In this document: positions 11,554-52,011 of the stretch, one piece after another | Position numbering within the stretch: position 1 is the first letter of the stretch | How the letters are laid out: each line of letters starts with the position of its first letter | Assembly (NCBI RefSeq): GCF_988242995.1 | Contig: NZ_OZ547043.1 | Strand: one strand, 5' to 3' | DNA: 64,000 bases | Notes under the pieces: generated by a model | Told to the model about the DNA's origin: nothing | The model's database searches: none | What the model saw: the letters and a program-made list of their open reading frames with translations, nothing else | Program-made: the position numbers and the translations under genes

Positions 11554-11592
11554 CACGCTACCGCCCCTGGCTTTACAGCTACCAGAGCACTA
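11554..11592 (-). promoter_or_regulatory. JUMPstart element with ops site (RfaH-dependent antitermination) upstream of the O-antigen operon
   Basis: Minus-strand reading is cagtgctctggtagctgtaaagccaggggcGGCGGTAGCGTG; the ops core GGCGGTAGCGTG is the reverse complement of 11554-11565. Confidence 0.8.
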
Positions 11593-16882: not shown

Positions 16883-17069
16883 GCCTGATGCGACGCTGAC
16901 GCGTCTTATCAGGCCTACAAGACCCGAGCACAGAACCGTAGGCCGGATAAGGCGTTCACGCCGCATCCGGCATTCAGTGCCTGATGCGACGCTGACGCGT
17001 CTTATCAGGCCTACAGGTCCCGAGCACAGAACCGTAGGATGGATAAGGCGTTTTACGCCGCATCCGGCA
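16883..17069. repeat. BIME: four alternating REP palindromes
   Basis: gcctgatgcgacgctgacgcgtcttatcaggcctaca occurs twice, alternating with inverted gtaggccggataaggcgttcacgccgcatccggca-type copies, between wcaK and wzxC. Confidence 0.85.
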
Positions 17070-21477: not shown

Positions 21478-21567
21478 ATCGTTACCCTTTTTCAGGCAAT
21501 AGTTGGTCCTGACCGAAGCGGCCAATTTTATTTTTGTCGTTATTTACACCGCGGTTTCGCATTCATT

Positions 21568-36093: not shown

Positions 36094-36132
36094 CACGCTA
36101 CCGCCCCTGGCTTTTTAGCTACCAATACACTG
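36094..36132 (-). promoter_or_regulatory. JUMPstart element with ops site in the colanic acid operon leader
   Basis: Minus-strand reading is cagtgtattggtagctaaaaagccaggggcGGCGGTAGCGTG; near-identical to the O-antigen JUMPstart at 11554-11592. Confidence 0.8.
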
Positions 36133-46076: not shown

Positions 46077-47429
46077 GTGTTTATTGGTTTTGATTACGGT
46101 ACAGCAAACTGTTCAGTGGCGGTCATGCGCGACGGTAAGCCGCAATTACTGAAAATGGAAAACGACAGCACGCTGCTGCCTTCAATGCTTTGCGCGCCAA
46201 CGCGTGAAGCGGTAAGCGAATGGCTGTACCGCCATCATGATGTTCCGGCAGACGACGATGAAACGCAGGCGCTGTTGCGTCGGGCGATTCGTTATAACCG
46301 CGAAGAAGATATCGATGTTACGGCGAAAAGCGTGCAGTTCGGTCTTTCCTCACTGGCACAGTACATTGATGATCCAGAAGAAGTGTGGTTTGTGAAATCA
46401 CCAAAATCGTTCCTCGGTGCCAGCGGCTTAAAACCGCAGCAGGTAGCGCTGTTTGAGGATCTGGTCTGCGCAATGATGTTGCACATTCGCCAGCAGGCGC
46501 AGGCACAGCTGCCAGAAGCGATTACTCAGGCGGTGATTGGTCGCCCTATCAACTTCCAGGGGCTTGGCGGCGATGAAGCAAACACCCAGGCGCAGGGGAT
46601 TCTGGAACGCGCGGCGAAGCGTGCCGGGTTTAAGGATGTGGTATTCCAGTACGAGCCGGTCGCGGCTGGGCTGGATTACGAAGCCACCTTGCAGGAAGAA
46701 AAACGGGTGCTGGTGGTGGATATCGGCGGTGGTACGACTGACTGTTCATTGCTGCTGATGGGGCCGCAGTGGCGTTCGCGTCTCGATCGTGAAGCCAGCC
46801 TGCTGGGTCACAGTGGTTGCCGTATTGGCGGTAACGATCTGGATATCGCGCTGGCGTTTAAAAACCTGATGCCGTTACTGGGCATGGGTGGCGAAACCGA
46901 AAAAGGCATCGCCCTGCCTATTCTGCCGTGGTGGAATGCGGTTGCCATCAACGACGTTCCTGCACAGAGTGATTTCTACAGTAGTGCCAACGGTCGTCTG
47001 CTTAACGACCTGGTACGCGATGCCCGCGAACCGGAAAAAGTGGCCCTGTTACAGAAAGTCTGGCGTCAGCGTTTAAGCTATCGCCTGGTACGTAGCGCAG
47101 AAGAGAGCAAAATTGCGCTTTCAAGCGTAGCGGAAACCCGCGCCTCACTGCCGTTTATCAGCGATGAACTGGCTACGCTGATTAGCCAGCAAGGGCTGGA
47201 AAGCGCCCTCAGCCAGCCACTGGCGCGGATTCTGGAACAGGTGCAACTGGCGCTGGATAACGCCCAGGAAAAACCGGATGTTATCTATCTGACCGGCGGT
47301 AGCGCCCGTTCACCGCTGATTAAAAAAGCGCTGACAGAACAGTTGCCGGGCATTCCGATTGCAGGTGGCGATGACTTTGGCTCCGTCACCGCCGGGCTCG
47401 CACGCTGGGCGGAAGTGGTGTTTCGTTAA
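46077..47429 (+). CDS. yegD: Hsp70/actin-fold ATPase YegD
   Basis: Conserved N-terminus FIGFDYGTANCSVAVMRDGKP begins at an in-frame GTG (46077), giving 450 aa; ORF track starts at 46014. Confidence 0.85.
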   Translation: MFIGFDYGTANCSVAVMRDGKPQLLKMENDSTLLPSMLCAPTREAVSEWLYRHHDVPADDDETQALLRRAIRYNREEDIDVTAKSVQFGLSSLAQYIDDPEEVWFVKSPKSFLGASGLKPQQVALFEDLVCAMMLHIRQQAQAQLPEAITQAVIGRPINFQGLGGDEANTQAQGILERAAKRAGFKDVVFQYEPVAAGLDYEATLQEEKRVLVVDIGGGTTDCSLLLMGPQWRSRLDREASLLGHSGCRIGGNDLDIALAFKNLMPLLGMGGETEKGIALPILPWWNAVAINDVPAQSDFYSSANGRLLNDLVRDAREPEKVALLQKVWRQRLSYRLVRSAEESKIALSSVAETRASLPFISDELATLISQQGLESALSQPLARILEQVQLALDNAQEKPDVIYLTGGSARSPLIKKALTEQLPGIPIAGGDDFGSVTAGLARWAEVVFR

Positions 47430-47441
47430 TTGAAAACTGGT

Positions 47442-49391
47442 TCAGCAACGGCTTAAATCAGCCTGCGCCTGAGCCAGTTTTTCTGCCGCCTGACGTAACG
47501 GTTCCATCAACGGCATGGTCCGTGCTGGAGCATGAAGGCGGAATCGCTGCAACTCTGTCGCACCGACAGTCAACGCCGATTCCAGCCGATGTCGTTTGGC
47601 GGCCATTTTTGCCATTACCGCTTGTCTGTCTGCAGGCGTTACCGCTTCGTTCGGCCTGAAAACAAAACGGCGTTCGCAACTCGCTTTCCAGTCGATAACC
47701 GCCTGGGTCAGATGATCACCAAAACCTTTCACTTGCTTAACGCTCCGTCGGGTAACGTCTGCCGCCGTTTCAATACCAAAGGACCGTAACGCAGCTTTAC
47801 GCGCAGGGCCAACGCCGGGAATAGAGGCAACATCAATAAAAAATCCCTCCAGAAACTTCTGCTTCTGCCGTTCCCTTGCGGTGTCCTGAAGTGCTGCCAG
47901 AGCGCGTTTCTCTTCTTCCGGTAACCCGAGCATTTCGTCCTTCATTTTTTCGAGCATCGTCCGTTTGGCGATAAAACCTTCCAGCCCGCCCAACCGTTGG
48001 ATCTGGCTGACTAAATGGTCATAGTCCATTTTCGCGCGATTAAACGCCTCACGGCGTTGCTGGATTTCTGCTTTGTACGCTTTGCTTGTCAGGCTGCCAA
48101 TAATCCAGATAGCCGCCAGCACAGGAACCAAAATAATATAACGCGGTTCTGCCTGAAGGCCGCAAAGCAACAGCGATAACGCTGACAGTGCGATCTCAAT
48201 CAGAATGATGTATTCGCGCCGTAACAGGCCTAAAGGAAGCGGCCTGCCAGTCAGTTGGAAATGATCGGGTAATGGCAGTTGCAATGCTGGCGGTGCTACT
48301 GACGCCATCACCATCGCCCAGACTTTCGCCAGCACAAAATCACCGCTGGTGGTAATGACCTCTTCGCCGAGATCAATAAAATAGATAACGCCTTGATTAT
48401 CCAGCGCACACCACGGGCAGTCAGTCAAATGACCGGGGTAAACATGCATTGCCGAAACGGTACATTTCTTTAACTGTTGGCGTAGTAAATCAAGTGCCGC
48501 AACCCACGCTTTTGCCGTCGGACGCCCGGTTGCCACGCCACTTTCCGTGAATGCCTGCTGAAACATGGTTTCAACATCGCCCGGTAACATCGACAGCGGA
48601 ATAGATCGTGGCGGCGGTTTTAAACCACGTCGCTGATTATCTGACGCGTAGGCATAACGGAAATGGGCAATATCCGTCTCCAGTGCATTACCCGCATCAG
48701 AGACAAGCGGTACACCGGAATAAGGATGCCGCCCACCAAACAAGACGTGAAAAATCAGCAACGCAAGGCCAAAATTATCGTGATTCGCGGTGCGTTCAAA
48801 GCCGACAAATGATGGCAAGGTTTGCAGCTCTGGCGGCGTAAAATGCGACACGCCGACTTCGCATAAATGCAGCGTGCCATTGGCGTTAATCTGAAAGGAG
48901 TCGCTATCAATCAACACCACTTTGCTGTCGCGACCTACCATAAAACTGTTCTGGTTTACGTCACCCACGACGTGCCCGTGCTCGTGAACCGTAGCAAAAG
49001 ATGAAGCAATATTGCGCGCAACATAGAGTAGAAAATCCCACGCACAATGAGGGTAACGTTGACGACGATGTGCCGGGCTATAGATCATATGAATCGGTTC
49101 TTTACCAGAAACTTTTGGCATCATAAAACCGATAACTTTTCCGCCTCGTCCACCGTGAAGCGTTGCCTGCGGCCAGGCGACATAATTCAACAATTGCGCG
49201 TCAGCTGTCGCAGCCATAAAGGCAAGTTTGTCCTGTTTTAAGGCGGGTGGCGGCGTGTGATAAATCTTGGCGACGCTATCGACAAACTCATTGATATCAT
49301 AAACCGCGCCTTCACCGCCTTTGCCCAGTTCACGGCCTGGCGTAACGCACTCACCAGTAGCAGTATATAAAGTGGGTTTCATGGTAACCAC
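47442..49391 (-). CDS. yegI: Eukaryotic-like Ser/Thr protein kinase with C-terminal membrane and coiled-coil regions
   Basis: 649 aa (or 646 from the Met at 49382); kinase-like N-terminal half (GKGGEGAVY glycine loop, HGHVVGDVNQNSF catalytic region), central hydrophobic segments; start overlaps the yegK stop. Confidence 0.85.
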   Translation of the reverse strand: MVTMKPTLYTATGECVTPGRELGKGGEGAVYDINEFVDSVAKIYHTPPPALKQDKLAFMAATADAQLLNYVAWPQATLHGGRGGKVIGFMMPKVSGKEPIHMIYSPAHRRQRYPHCAWDFLLYVARNIASSFATVHEHGHVVGDVNQNSFMVGRDSKVVLIDSDSFQINANGTLHLCEVGVSHFTPPELQTLPSFVGFERTANHDNFGLALLIFHVLFGGRHPYSGVPLVSDAGNALETDIAHFRYAYASDNQRRGLKPPPRSIPLSMLPGDVETMFQQAFTESGVATGRPTAKAWVAALDLLRQQLKKCTVSAMHVYPGHLTDCPWCALDNQGVIYFIDLGEEVITTSGDFVLAKVWAMVMASVAPPALQLPLPDHFQLTGRPLPLGLLRREYIILIEIALSALSLLLCGLQAEPRYIILVPVLAAIWIIGSLTSKAYKAEIQQRREAFNRAKMDYDHLVSQIQRLGGLEGFIAKRTMLEKMKDEMLGLPEEEKRALAALQDTARERQKQKFLEGFFIDVASIPGVGPARKAALRSFGIETAADVTRRSVKQVKGFGDHLTQAVIDWKASCERRFVFRPNEAVTPADRQAVMAKMAAKRHRLESALTVGATELQRFRLHAPARTMPLMEPLRQAAEKLAQAQADLSRC

Positions 49392-50140
49392 AGCGCCAGT
49401 GCCAACGTTTTATCATCATCCGTACGCTCGTTTACCGCCGGGCTGGACAAAAACTGCTTTAACAATTCAGGTAATAAATCGAGTTGTTCCTGCGTTGCTG
49501 ACGCCAGTCCATTGAAAAACGGGGTAAAGAAAGGTACATGAGGAGAATTATCCAGCATATTTAACGCCAGTCGCTGGATACCATCCGTAAATGCTGCAAC
49601 TTTGTGCGCACGCCCAGTGCTGGTGAAAGTTTCCAGTCTGGAAACGGCATCTTCGTCGGTAATGAAGTGCGTCATATTGGCATATTCACCCACCATCGGC
49701 GTGAGAGGCAATTGCAGACCGTGACCCAAATCTACCACCATGCCGCCATCGCCAATCTGCATAATCAAGGTGCCGTCAGGCGATGAAATCAGTCCCAGAA
49801 ATGTACAGGCAAAATCGCGAACCGCTAATTCTTTGGCTTCCGCCTCGGCAAAAAGTCGTTGACGAATGGTCAGCACAATATCCGTGGCGAGGACATCATT
49901 AAGCCCCAATTCCCCGCCCTGCACTTTTTGCGACATATAAGCCATCGCTTCATTGACGGCGAGCATCGCGCCTTCGCCACCCTGCGAGACACTGCCTGCG
50001 CCATCAGCGACAAATACCGACAATAATGGCTGCTGGTCATTTAACCAGGCAACCTGCATCTGGCAGGCATCCTGGCAAGGCAAGTCCGCGCTGATGTGCG
50101 ACGTTCCAACGGTTGATGCATAGACCAGACGCCAGCTCAC
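49379..50140 (-). CDS. pphC: PP2C-family Ser/Thr phosphatase
   Basis: 253 aa; [27 protein letters not shown] and [16 protein letters not shown] match the PP2C fold; also known as yegK. Confidence 0.85.
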
Positions 50141-50796
50141 ACTGACGTCCAGCCTTTTGGCGCTTCCAGCACAACTTCCGTTCCCGGCGTGGAGCGGGAA
50201 ACCGAACGCAGCGAACTGGATAACCAGCTAAACAGTTCACGGAATTGTAATCCCTGCAGTGGCAAAGGCTGACGAACGCTGATTTGTGCCAGCGTCTTCA
50301 TATCCGCCCCCTGTACACCAATGGTAAAGAAGGCAAACTTCTTATCTTCTTCCCCCTGAAACACTTTGTTGGCGGCAGCCTGCCACTCATCGGTTGGAGC
50401 GCCATCGGTGATCAGGAAAATCCACGGGCGATAATAGGAAATACCATTTGCACGATACTCACGTTTCCGCTCCTCTACCATATCCAGGGCTTTGGTAATG
50501 GCAGCGCCCATTGGTGTATCGCCCTGGGCAAACAGGATGGGCGGGAAAAAATTAGCGGCGCTGGTAAAGGGTTGTTCCACATGCACCGGGCCGAACGTCA
50601 CAATGCCGAGTTCCACTCTTTTTAAGGCTAGCGAATCGGCAAGCAGTTCATCGCGAAAGGTAACCAATCCGGCGTTAAGTTCATTAATAGGTCTACCACT
50701 CATCGAACCAGAAACATCCAACAGCAAAATGCAGGGGCAACGTGGTTCCGGGTTACTGGCAAAATCGCTGGTGGCAAACGTGATTTGTTCGCTCAT
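50137..50796 (-). CDS. yegL: von Willebrand factor A domain protein
   Basis: 219 aa; [22 protein letters not shown] contains the vWA MIDAS motif DxSxS; overlaps the yegK start by 4 nt. Confidence 0.85.
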
Positions 50797-50977
50797 AAGA
50801 AATCCTTTCTTAGAGAATTATCGAGGTCCGGTATCATACCGATTGCAATAATGAAATAAGAGCAAACGAAGAAACTTTCAGAATTAGGCCCGGCGGCGCA
50901 GAAAATTTTGCTATTCGCCTCGCAAGAACGGAGAGCCGTCGATTGACACTAAGGGCGGAGTGACATAATTTCAGGAG

Positions 50978-51125
50978 TGAGGGTTAGGGAGAGGTTTCCC
51001 CCTCCCCCTGGTGTTCTTAGTAAGCCTGGAAGCTAATCACTAAGAGTATCACCAGTATGATGACGTGCTTCATCATAACCCTTTCCTTATTAAAAGCCCT
51101 CTTCTCCGGGAGAGGGTTTCCCGTT
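50978..51125 (+). ncRNA. sibA: Sib antitoxin sRNA, unit 1 (SibA-like)
   Basis: Sigma70-like promoter TTGACA (50943-50948), 17-nt spacer, TAATTT (50966-50971); terminator stem ccctct (51097-51102) / agaggg (51111-51116) followed by TTTCCCGTTT; fully antisense to ibsA. Ends are approximate. Confidence 0.6.
51017..51076 (-). CDS. ibsA: Type I toxin Ibs, 19-aa hydrophobic peptide
   Basis: Minus-strand ORF atgatgaagcacgtcatcatactggtgatactcttagtgattagcttccaggcttactaa = MMKHVIILVILLVISFQAY; SD-like aaggaaaggg upstream; not in the ORF track (below 60 aa). Confidence 0.75.
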   Translation of the reverse strand: MMKHVIILVILLVISFQAY

Positions 51126-51312
51126 TCAGCGTCCCGCTGAAATCGTCGGCTTACCTCCTTTCGCCCTGAATGCAGTCTATCGCTAACGCGTGAACAAAAT
51201 AGTTTCCTCTGTGATTATTGCGTAACGACTCGCAAAGAATATTTGCTGGCAGGATCGCAGACTGCAAAGCCTGCGGATTGACAATCTTATCGTGAAGGCA
51301 TAATTTCAGGAG

Positions 51313-51454
51313 TGAGGGTAGAGCGGGGTTTCCCCCGCCCTGGTAGTCTTAGTAAGCGGGGAAGCTTATGACTAAGAGCACCACGATGATGAGTAGCTTC
51401 ATCATGACCCTTTCCTTATTTAAGGCCCCTTCCTCGGGAGGGGCTTTCCCGTTT
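51313..51454 (+). ncRNA. sibB: Sib antitoxin sRNA, unit 2 (SibB-like)
   Basis: TTGACA (51278-51283), 17-nt spacer, TAATTT (51301-51306); terminator stem gcccct (51425-51430) / aggggc (51439-51444) plus T-tract; antisense to ibsB. Ends are approximate. Confidence 0.6.
51349..51405 (-). CDS. ibsB: Type I toxin Ibs, 18-aa hydrophobic peptide
   Basis: Minus-strand ORF atgatgaagctactcatcatcgtggtgctcttagtcataagcttccccgcttactaa = MMKLLIIVVLLVISFPAY. Confidence 0.75.
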   Translation of the reverse strand: MMKLLIIVVLLVISFPAY

Positions 51455-51640
51455 CAGCGTCCCGCTGAAATCGTCGACTTACCTCCTTTCGCCCTGTATG
51501 CAGTCTATCGCTGACTTGCGGATAAAATAGTTTCCAGTGTGATTATTGCGTAACGTCTCGCAAAGAATATTTGCTGGCAGGATCGCAGACTGCAAAGCCT
51601 GCAGATTGACAATCTTATCGTGAAGGCATACTTTCAGGAG

Positions 51641-51782
51641 TGAGGGTAGAGCGGGGTTTCCCCCGCCCTGGTAGTCTTAGTATGCTGGGTAGCTAATCAC
51701 TAAGAGCACCACGATGATGATCCACTTCATCATGACCCTTTCCTTATTTAAGGCCCCTTCCTCGGGAGGGGCTTTCCCGTTT
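51641..51782 (+). ncRNA. Sib-family antitoxin sRNA, unit 3
   Basis: TTGACA (51606-51611), 17-nt spacer, TACTTT (51629-51634); terminator stem gcccct (51753-51758) / aggggc (51767-51772) plus T-tract; antisense to the third ibs ORF. Ends are approximate. Confidence 0.55.
51677..51733 (-). CDS. Ibs-family type I toxin, divergent third copy (18 aa)
   Basis: Minus-strand ORF atgatgaagtggatcatcatcgtggtgctcttagtgattagctacccagcatactaa = MMKWIIIVVLLVISYPAY; same ATGATGAAG start and SD context as units 1 and 2. Confidence 0.65.
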   Translation of the reverse strand: MMKWIIIVVLLVISYPAY

Positions 51783-51940
51783 CAGCGTCCCGCTGAAATC
51801 GTCGGCTTACCTCCTTTCGCCATGCAAGCAGTCTATCGCTAACGCGTAGATAAAATAGTTTCATGTGTTATTACTGGATGCGTGCTCGCAAATGTGCCCG
51901 TCATTCAGACGATTCCCGACAGTGTTTCATAATTCCTCCA

Positions 51941-51958
51941 TTTTTCTCCCTTATTGGC
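51941..51958 (+). promoter_or_regulatory. BaeR box in the mdtA promoter
   Basis: TTTTTCTCCCTTATTGGC matches the BaeR consensus TTTTTCTCCATDATTGGC at 16 of 18 positions, about 55 bp upstream of the mdtA start; preceded by a second TTCTCCA half-site. Confidence 0.6.
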
Positions 51959-52011
51959 TGGCTACACTAGTATCATTCCGCGAAACGTTTCAGGAAGAGA
52001 AACTCTTAACG

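Follow-up and report, generated by a model that had tools for sequence, protein, structure and literature searches.

The yegL-pphC-yegI triad of Escherichia coli without yegJ: gene structure, origin and a possible TerY-P-type function

In Escherichia coli K-12 the gene yegJ lies between the kinase gene yegI and the phosphatase gene pphC (formerly yegK), whereas in the 64,000-nucleotide stretch of E. coli chromosome analysed here (NCBI RefSeq assembly GCF_988242995.1, contig NZ_OZ547043.1; hereafter the window) these two genes, together with yegL, form a minus-strand triad that is joined directly. Which of the two arrangements is the ordinary one, where the triad came from and what it might do for the cell are the questions that this locus raises. 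Our results indicate that the direct junction is the majority form and the ancestral one, that K-12 carries a secondary insertion, and that the triad is a phosphorylation switch of horizontal origin whose architecture is that of the TerY-P class.

The directly joined triad and its interruption in K-12

The gene order in the window is dgcE-alkA-yegD-yegI-pphC-yegL-sib/ibs-mdtAB. Megablast searches identified E. coli O158:H23 as the closest complete genome (99.6% identity across 5.3 kb), with most of 5,423 genomes being 95-97% identical to the window locus. The triad lies at the syntenic site, with yegD on one side and sib/ibs-mdtA on the other, and is therefore treated as the orthologous locus. 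It consists of the following genes, for which the RefSeq names are used:

50137-50796, minus strand: yegL, first gene of the triad, encoding a vWA-domain protein of 219 aa (open reading frame; RefSeq yegL)
49379-50140, minus strand: pphC (formerly yegK), encoding a PP2C-family Ser/Thr phosphatase of 253 aa, GTG start (open reading frame; Pfam)
47442-49382, minus strand: yegI, encoding an inner-membrane Ser/Thr kinase of 646 aa, ATG start (open reading frame; RefSeq)

All three frames are intact, as concluded concordantly from the open reading frame list, the RefSeq annotation of O158:H23 and the direct reading of the junctions. The stop codon of yegL overlaps the GTG start of pphC by four nucleotides (GTGA, 50137-50140), and the stop codon of pphC overlaps the ATG of yegI by the same length (ATGA, 49379-49382). 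We placed the start of yegI at this ATG, as in RefSeq and in all homologues; an in-frame GTG at 49391, nine bases upstream, is the mechanical start of the open reading frame. A previous interpretation of the window made from its letters only (the sequence-only reading) had proposed that both junctions overlap, which is correct; however, the first of them joins the stop of yegL to the start of yegK, and not the start of yegL to the stop of yegK. These overlaps are real gene structure, to which a comparison with chance does not apply. The same reading had described the triad as lacking yegJ, and this was upheld by the open reading frames, the O158:H23 annotation, the junctions themselves and searches with tblastn and blastn, which found no yegJ-like sequence within the whole 64 kb window.

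The four-nucleotide stop/start overlaps joining the three genes imply that these would be co-transcribed, and such an arrangement is usually associated with translational coupling. A scan of positions 47000-52000 for consensus promoters and terminators was uninformative on co-transcription, as it returned five promoter-like and seven terminator-like sites against 4.6 and 6.0 expected from shuffled sequences.

Alignment of the window to K-12 confirmed the yegJ difference: K-12 does not have the direct yegI/yegK junction. The sequence-only reading had described an opposite-strand yegJ between yegI and yegK in that strain, which is right, and a gap of about 1 kb, which is not, the distance between the pphC and yegI coding sequences being 725 bp. 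By blastn and sequence reading, 785 bp of AT-rich DNA with yegJ stand in K-12 in place of 50 bp of the window:

49338-49387, minus strand: 50-bp segment swapped in K-12-type genomes (blastn of the window against K-12)

The replaced segment spans the final three sense codons and the stop codon of pphC, as well as the first 15 codons of yegI. In K-12 yegJ encodes a DUF2314 protein of 153 aa. The insert has a GC content of 37%, as against about 52% in the genes on either side. Between yegJ and yegI, whose start codons are separated by 199 AT-rich bp, it falls to 29%; an inverted repeat lies between yegJ and pphC. The replacement altered the last two residues of PphC (WLP in the window, WAE in K-12), and the N-terminus of K-12 YegI, MKTNIKVFTSTGELTTLG, differs from that encoded by the first 15 codons in the window while still being recognisably homologous. 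The K-12-type arrangement, found in MG1655, W3110, a sequence type 69 (ST69) strain and about one third of the complete genomes, occupies the same site, and its yegL, pphC and the bulk of yegI encode products 96-98% identical in amino acid sequence to those of the window; it differs in that the stop/start overlap, kept in the window form, has been lost and yegI has an AT-rich upstream region of its own. The K-12 form is a secondary insertion that parted yegI from pphC-yegL and gave yegI a new 5' end and a new upstream region.

Part of this picture was already available. The ATGA overlap of pphC and yegI in REL606 and O157:H7, and the presence of yegJ between yegI and pphC in K strains, were described by Rajagopalan, Nagle & Dworkin (J Bacteriol 2018; 10.1101/303594) and by Rajagopalan & Dworkin (FEBS Lett 2020; 10.1101/819920), who noted that the yegJ insertion may disturb coordinated expression. 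The window has the same genes, order and ATGA overlap as the REL606/O157:H7 locus and the same polymorphism with respect to K-12, without any substantive difference, its allele being nearest to that of O158:H23. PphC was shown to be an active PP2C phosphatase that dephosphorylates YegI (10.1101/303594), and YegI an active autophosphorylating kinase that also phosphorylates PphC (10.1101/819920). A 2026 paper in RNA Biology (PMC13232886) restated the yegJ difference and studied YegJ itself. The genes, the enzyme activities, the ATGA overlap and the difference from K-12 are therefore known in the literature; what we add to the cited papers is how many genomes carry each form, in which direction the change went, the description of the triad as a 3.5 kb acquired island in an insertion hotspot, the distribution and contexts of the family, and the anatomy of the C-terminal part of the kinase.

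In 5,426 complete E. coli genomes, the direct pphC/yegI junction, scored as at least 80% of a 151-nt probe spanning it, was present in 3,471. The yegJ-bearing K-12 insert was found in 1,934, a count that takes in many laboratory K-12 assemblies, the natural frequency being probably lower. The pphC-yegI junction-region sequence was kept in at least 98% of the complete genomes. An insert with the same boundaries is present in an ST69 clinical isolate, with 94.5% identity, and also in isolates from pig, dog and calf, while the most divergent yegJ alleles in this set of genomes have about 90% identity. A restriction of yegJ to K strains, as stated in PMC13232886, is too narrow, and the insertion has persisted long enough to accumulate 5-10% divergence. 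A direct junction was present in E. marmotae, E. whittamii and two further Escherichia species, as well as in one divergent lineage of E. coli, and more distant relatives in Klebsiella, Burkholderiales and other groups (30-63% kinase identity) have the three genes adjacent and yegJ in none. Because the sister species and the distant relatives have the adjacency and never yegJ, comparison of these loci identifies the direct junction as the ancestral form, besides its being the majority one, and K-12 as the exception. The state without yegJ is hence the ordinary one: the coupled operon is found in about 64% of complete genomes and in all the sister species examined. As K-12 is derived, a locus of the B, O157 or B2 type is the one to choose for studies of this kinase system.

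We also considered whether yegJ might be the older resident of the locus, as hinted by the adjacency of yegD and yegJ in Superficieibacter. This was rejected, since both yegJ and the triad are missing from Salmonella, Citrobacter and Kluyvera; it is also contradicted by the DNA homology between K-12 and Superficieibacter, which is confined to the yegJ coding sequence, and by the direct junction in all relatives of the triad.

Individual lineages can lose the locus. In E. coli strain 510016 pphC is broken by two copies of IS1, most of the yegJ segment has been lost and ibsA has an IS150 next to it, an example of locus decay within one lineage.

Origin, conservation and divergence of the cassette

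Salmonella enterica and Citrobacter freundii have the order dgcE-alkA-yegD-ibs-mdtA, yegD being directly followed by a single Sib/Ibs module, and in Kluyvera yegD is followed by mdtA. Nucleotide homology of the window with Salmonella and Citrobacter ends at the yegD stop codon, at 47429 (47423 for Kluyvera), and restarts at about 50960-50973, in the first Sib/Ibs module. The limits of the Escherichia-specific DNA and of the neighbouring array are as follows:

47430-50959, no strand assigned: whole Escherichia-specific island of about 3.5 kb (blastn of the Salmonella, Citrobacter and Kluyvera loci against the window)
50943-51748, plus strand: Sib RNA/ibs type I toxin-antitoxin array of three tandem modules with a 328-nt period (three Rfam SIB_RNA matches of 139-150 bits; direct repeats; ibs coding sequences in O158:H23)

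Since these three genera lack the triad and homology breaks at its edges, the comparison indicates that the triad, with about 160 bp upstream of it, is a horizontally acquired insertion of about 3.5 kb between yegD and sib/ibs. In Superficieibacter electus the same gap holds yegJ together with genes for domains of the type VI secretion effector/immunity kind (Tle3_C, Tli3, SUKH, Imm52), so that the gap between yegD and sib/ibs-mdtA behaves as an insertion hotspot. In one E. marmotae genome the type III effector genes Cif and NleG were found past ibs, where mdtA would be expected. The Sib/Ibs array, correctly anticipated as a toxin-antitoxin array adjoining the triad, is context and lies outside it. 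The number of modules per locus is three in the window and in the ST69 strain, two in K-12 and one in Salmonella and Citrobacter, and we therefore conclude that copy number varies by tandem duplication.

A search of 5.8 billion proteins returned no YegI homologue at 63-91% identity, which weakly suggests that the triad is absent from E. albertii and E. fergusonii. The YegI family comprises roughly 1,600 members. The nearest relatives of YegI outside Escherichia are in Klebsiella spallanzanii and K. aerogenes, followed mostly by Betaproteobacteria. Full-length relatives with 40-50% identity are carried by megaplasmids of Pseudomonas, Cupriavidus and Ralstonia, the complete triad being present on the Pseudomonas megaplasmid pQBR103, and weaker matches occur on many plasmids of Rhizobiaceae; in phage genomes there was none beyond one partial match with 27% identity.

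The sequence-only reading had called for a survey of the co-occurrence of the three genes. A scan of one genome per species, which used two peptide patterns only and missed known carriers (the main E. coli and E. marmotae representatives), yielded 25 loci, and the order YegL-PphC-YegI was found in all 22 that had upstream DNA and a detectable triad. In 21 of these 22 yegL and pphC abut and pphC and yegI are 0 to about 40 nt apart; the remaining locus is broken by inserted DNA, and yegJ was in none. Apart from that split locus, order and adjacency hold even where the kinases share just 30% identity. Among the carriers of the same triad are Klebsiella spallanzanii, Piscinibacter and Chromobacterium.

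The products of the three window genes share 94-100% identity with E. coli alleles. The most conserved of them is YegL, with 70-85% identity to the Klebsiella and Burkholderiales proteins where PphC and YegI have 50-66%. Within Escherichia, the ratio of nonsynonymous to synonymous substitution rates (dN/dS) was 0.11-0.16 for yegI, 0.12-0.30 for pphC and 0.01-0.08 for yegL, the last being the range also obtained for the flanking genes yegD and mdtA. These values show that all three genes of the triad are under purifying selection and are being maintained. The high divergence of PphC and YegI has been noted in the literature; positive selection as its cause was rejected, since a dN/dS of 0.11-0.30 indicates constraint that is relaxed but still purifying. 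It reflects instead weaker constraint combined with recombination between alleles, to which the uneven synonymous divergence (dS) points.

Two observations concern such mosaics. In E. coli strain E69, pphC has a dS of 0.79 and encodes a protein 82% identical to that of the window, while dS is about 0.25 in yegI, yegL and mdtA around it; this pphC looks like a divergent allele imported by recombination. The comparison of the window with K-12 gave the opposite mosaic, with a dS of 0.035 in pphC and of 0.15 in yegI and yegL.

Anatomy of YegL, PphC and YegI

The identities proposed for the three proteins on first inspection (vWA protein, PP2C phosphatase and kinase) agree with the Pfam matches, the kinase fold and the RefSeq names. 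YegL matches the Pfam VWA family (E=2.8e-10) and, as had been noticed, has a metal ion-dependent adhesion site (MIDAS), which is complete (D27-x-S29-x-S31, T94 and D131) and invariant in 18 homologues; its Ser-rich C-terminal tail is invariant or nearly so across the same set. PphC matches PP2C_2 (E=3.2e-52).

The order of elements in YegI was derived from 46 aligned homologues together with two AlphaFold2 models, one of the full-length protein (pLDDT 78) and one of residues 436-646 (pLDDT 93): kinase domain, Cys/His motif, linker, membrane hairpin and a stalk with a predicted helix-hairpin-helix (HhH) tip. The models also agree with the membrane/coiled-coil C-terminal half that had been predicted for this protein. 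The elements map as follows:

48483-49382, minus strand: YegI kinase domain, about aa 1-300 (alignment invariants, AlphaFold2 model, Foldseek)
48378-48470, minus strand: YegI Cys/His motif, zinc-ribbon-like, directly after the kinase domain (C307, H313, H318, C322-P-W-C325)
48075-48218, minus strand: YegI transmembrane hairpin, about aa 389-436 (hydropathy peaks near 400 and 424; predicted helices 389-408 and from 413)
47445-48074, minus strand: YegI cytoplasmic C-terminal module, aa 437-646 (coiled-coil stalk and apical HhH)

Foldseek aligned the YegI model to 188 protein-kinase structures of the PDB at E<=0.001, with a TM-score of about 0.55 on the target. Residues K39 and D141, the ones mutated in published work (10.1101/819920), are invariant among homologues; fold, catalytic Lys and Asp and published activity thus identify YegI as a Hanks-type kinase. 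Pfam Pkinase gave no match to YegI at E<=0.01, and AlphaFold2 confidence was below 50 at residues 143-161, 176-186 and 222-253 (about 48624-48956), which make up the catalytic-loop and activation-segment region and are yet among the most conserved of the family. The low confidence in the modelled catalytic loop and the lack of a Pkinase match fit the published description of an atypical kinase without the standard Mg-binding residues.

In the Cys/His motif C307, H313, C322, W324 and C325 are invariant in the 46 homologues, and H318 is so in a set of 19 sequences. AlphaFold2 predicts two short strands within it (residues 304-306 and 314-316). The motif may bind zinc; searches for a family model or a fold match to a zinc ribbon were negative, and no OB fold was found in YegI.

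The transmembrane hairpin agrees with the PhoA/LacZ topology mapping, according to which YegI is a two-pass inner-membrane protein with a two-helix hairpin and both termini in the cytoplasm (10.1101/819920). Beyond it, the helices of the stalk extend over about aa 437-511 and 583-644, and fold matches indicate that they would be antiparallel. The tip of the stalk, about aa 512-582, contains the putative HhH elements GVGPARK...GIETAADV and GFG, whose hairpin glycines are invariant. The only Pfam domain match of YegI was HHH_5, with 21.7 bits, under the family cut-off of 27, and a profile search of the PDB returned only weak matches to the HhH of Pol IV and L32e (E of about 0.1-0.2). This anatomy of the C-terminal half offers concrete handles for experiments.

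Distant kinase homologues (about 34% identity) reach 900-1,030 aa (Microvirga massiliensis, L032:6367-9456, and L031:10001-12739). The Microvirga massiliensis protein has a peptidoglycan-binding domain C-terminal to the HhH region, and some members of the family therefore extend into the periplasm.

Resemblance to TerY-P systems and possible functions

The combination of a vWA protein, a PP2C phosphatase and a kinase is that of the TerY-P class. According to PMC11090510 and PMC4978471, Anantharaman, Iyer & Aravind introduced this class in 2012 and suggested that it acts as a phosphorylation switch tied to DNA-processing and restriction systems. Anti-phage activity has been reported for members of this class (PMC11090510, PMC7699616, PMC10889362). 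The E. coli locus has adjacent genes for VWA, PP2C_2 and kinase-fold proteins and an intact MIDAS (DxSxS...T...D), and by this architecture yegL-pphC-yegI is a TerY-P-type triad. TerY-P triads, among them the ones lodged within CoCoNuT type IV restriction systems (PMC11090510), share with it the vWA/MIDAS protein, the PP2C phosphatase and a kinase whose catalytic domain is followed by a Cys-rich element, putatively a zinc ribbon in YegI, and are mobile and often adjoin restriction or conflict systems, as do relatives of the E. coli triad. YegI differs from the kinases of that class by its transmembrane hairpin and its coiled-coil stalk with an HhH tip, and the E. coli triad, in contrast to the CoCoNuT-embedded ones, stands alone, with neither McrBC nor a helicase or nuclease as partner, and has become fixed in E. 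coli. The TerY-P of Gao et al. 2020 and the P. aeruginosa variant of Costa et al. 2024 (PMC10889362) are stand-alone cassettes with the same three domains that reportedly protect against T7-like phages (Autographiviridae), most infected P. aeruginosa cells surviving; the kinase of the Gao system ends in an OB fold, in place of which YegI has the membrane hairpin, stalk and HhH. We rejected membership of the E. coli triad in the family modelled in PADLOC after Gao et al. 2020, as there was no real profile match: with E-values allowed up to 10, YegL matched TerY at E=0.013 (13 bits), PphC had no match to the TerY-P models, and YegI gave only weak generic kinase matches to PD-T4-6 and MkoA.

We regard a vWA/PP2C/kinase phosphorylation switch and its horizontal origin as established. 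The reading that we favour for the whole is that of a self-contained, horizontally acquired cassette of the TerY-P type, working as a conflict or stress switch with a likely anti-phage role, and we give it a probability of about 0.6. As the cassette might work, PphC would keep it off until a signal tips the balance toward YegI, the HhH module mounted on the stalk may touch nucleic acid near the membrane, and YegL, with its intact MIDAS and invariant Ser-rich tail, would take part in the switch as a metal-dependent partner and probably as its substrate. The cassette would serve as a sensor of conflict or stress, most likely in anti-phage defence as in other TerY-P triads. In about half of the examined contexts outside Escherichia, defence genes lie within 10 kb (type I restriction-modification, GmrSD, Wadjet, BrxR/WYL, AbiH and KAP NTPase), and a genome-wide screen classed the overproduction of YegL, and likewise that of YegI, as DNA-damaging (10.1101/354589). 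The autonomy and mobility of the cassette and a nuclease gene upstream of the triad in three Burkholderiales loci, described below, also favour such a role. Membership in this mobile family of three genes, with carriers in Burkholderiales, on megaplasmids and beside restriction or Wadjet genes, ties an orphan kinase and phosphatase of E. coli to a class with proven anti-phage members. Taken on its own, a function of yegL-pphC-yegI in defence or DNA surveillance has in our judgement slightly less than even odds; if true, it would explain a long-uncharacterised kinase system of almost every E. coli.

A more elaborate version of the defence reading, which we regard as doubtful, is that the triad is a TerY-P-class immune or DNA-surveillance module fixed in Escherichia, whose stalk kinase would detect phage or plasmid DNA at the inner membrane by its HhH tip, with PphC restraining the kinase, YegL acting as the MIDAS-dependent partner or substrate, and yegJ uncoupling the kinase in K-12. 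Were this so, the insertion of yegJ in K-12, the standard host of phage genetics, could be one reason why the function went unnoticed.

Several results weigh against the cassette being a defence switch. The cassette is nearly universal in E. coli and occupies a fixed site, unlike most defence systems, and encodes no obvious effector such as a nuclease or a pore-former. The intact coupled form is present in E. coli B strains, the classical hosts on which T7 and other T phages grow freely. The other half of the neighbourhoods outside Escherichia consists of ordinary housekeeping genes. Fold searches with the C-terminal part of YegI returned generic coiled-coil matches only, and binding of DNA through the HhH or of zinc through the Cys/His motif is conjectural. 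The PADLOC result given above bears in the same direction, no phage-defence phenotype of yegLKI was reported in the literature that we found, and the authors who characterised the enzymes did not detect pphC expression and found that of yegI to be very low and confined to stationary phase.

The very low stationary-phase expression is also compatible with YegI and PphC being an ordinary eukaryotic-like housekeeping signalling pair that would regulate, through phosphorylation of cellular proteins, a host process such as one related to the envelope, the growth phase or stationary phase, with YegL as an accessory substrate or scaffold and without any role toward phage or foreign DNA. This is the framing used by those authors, and it accords with the near-universal presence of the genes in E. 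coli at a single fixed locus under purifying selection, as well as with the recurrent yegI mutations of the long-term evolution experiment, which suggest fitness effects in the absence of phage. We nevertheless consider it unlikely, in view of the recent horizontal acquisition, the syntenic site being without the cassette in Salmonella, Citrobacter and Kluyvera; of the scattering of the nearest relatives over Klebsiella spallanzanii, Burkholderiales and megaplasmids, several of them among restriction, Wadjet and Abi genes; and of the three genes always travelling together, as an autonomous module typically does and a regulator wired into host pathways does not.

The triad could also be a sensor of metal or xenobiotic stress, as originally meant in the Ter/TerY literature. 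In that case a divalent metal, or a stress resembling that of tellurite, would be detected by the MIDAS of YegL, the kinase and phosphatase would relay the signal and the HhH would provide a link to DNA repair. According to PMC11090510 and PMC4978471, TerY-P triads were first described in tellurite-resistance contexts and proposed to be metal-sensing phosphorylation switches; the perfect conservation of the MIDAS and the DNA-damaging score of overproduced YegL and YegI are compatible with this. However, neither in E. coli nor in the examined relatives do ter or metal-resistance genes adjoin the cassette, MIDAS sites are generic sites of protein-protein adhesion, and no response to metal shows in the data analysed, so that we find a metal sensor improbable. 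Least probable is that the triad is a silent relic, that is, a decaying and untranscribed leftover of an old transfer in which the overlap and the state of yegJ have no functional consequence. The scant expression, the IS1 and IS150 insertions in pphC and beside ibsA in some strains, the truncated YegI proteins in the database and the tolerance of K-12 to the yegJ insertion would agree with a relic, but the dN/dS of 0.01-0.30 across E. coli and its sister species, the intact frames in the window, E. marmotae and E. whittamii, the near-constant retention of the junction region and the catalytic activity of both enzymes would not.

With respect to a possible effector, two Piscinibacter genomes and one metagenome-assembled genome of Burkholderiales have a gene for a staphylococcal-nuclease (SNase) domain protein that precedes the vWA gene by about 100 bp in the same orientation (L016:7932-8471, L030:7929-8468 and L017:8155-8478). 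The encoded nuclease could be an effector partner of the triad; the E. coli locus has no SNase equivalent. If the defence reading is true, this gene hints at a nuclease effector that the E. coli form lacks or recruits from elsewhere.

Other RNA elements were matched by Rfam away from the triad. Two JUMPstart elements lie on the minus strand at 11554-11592 and 36094-36132, as expected upstream of colanic-acid and O-antigen clusters, and a naRNA4 element and an algC RNA motif were found at 16941-17011 and 21482-21531.

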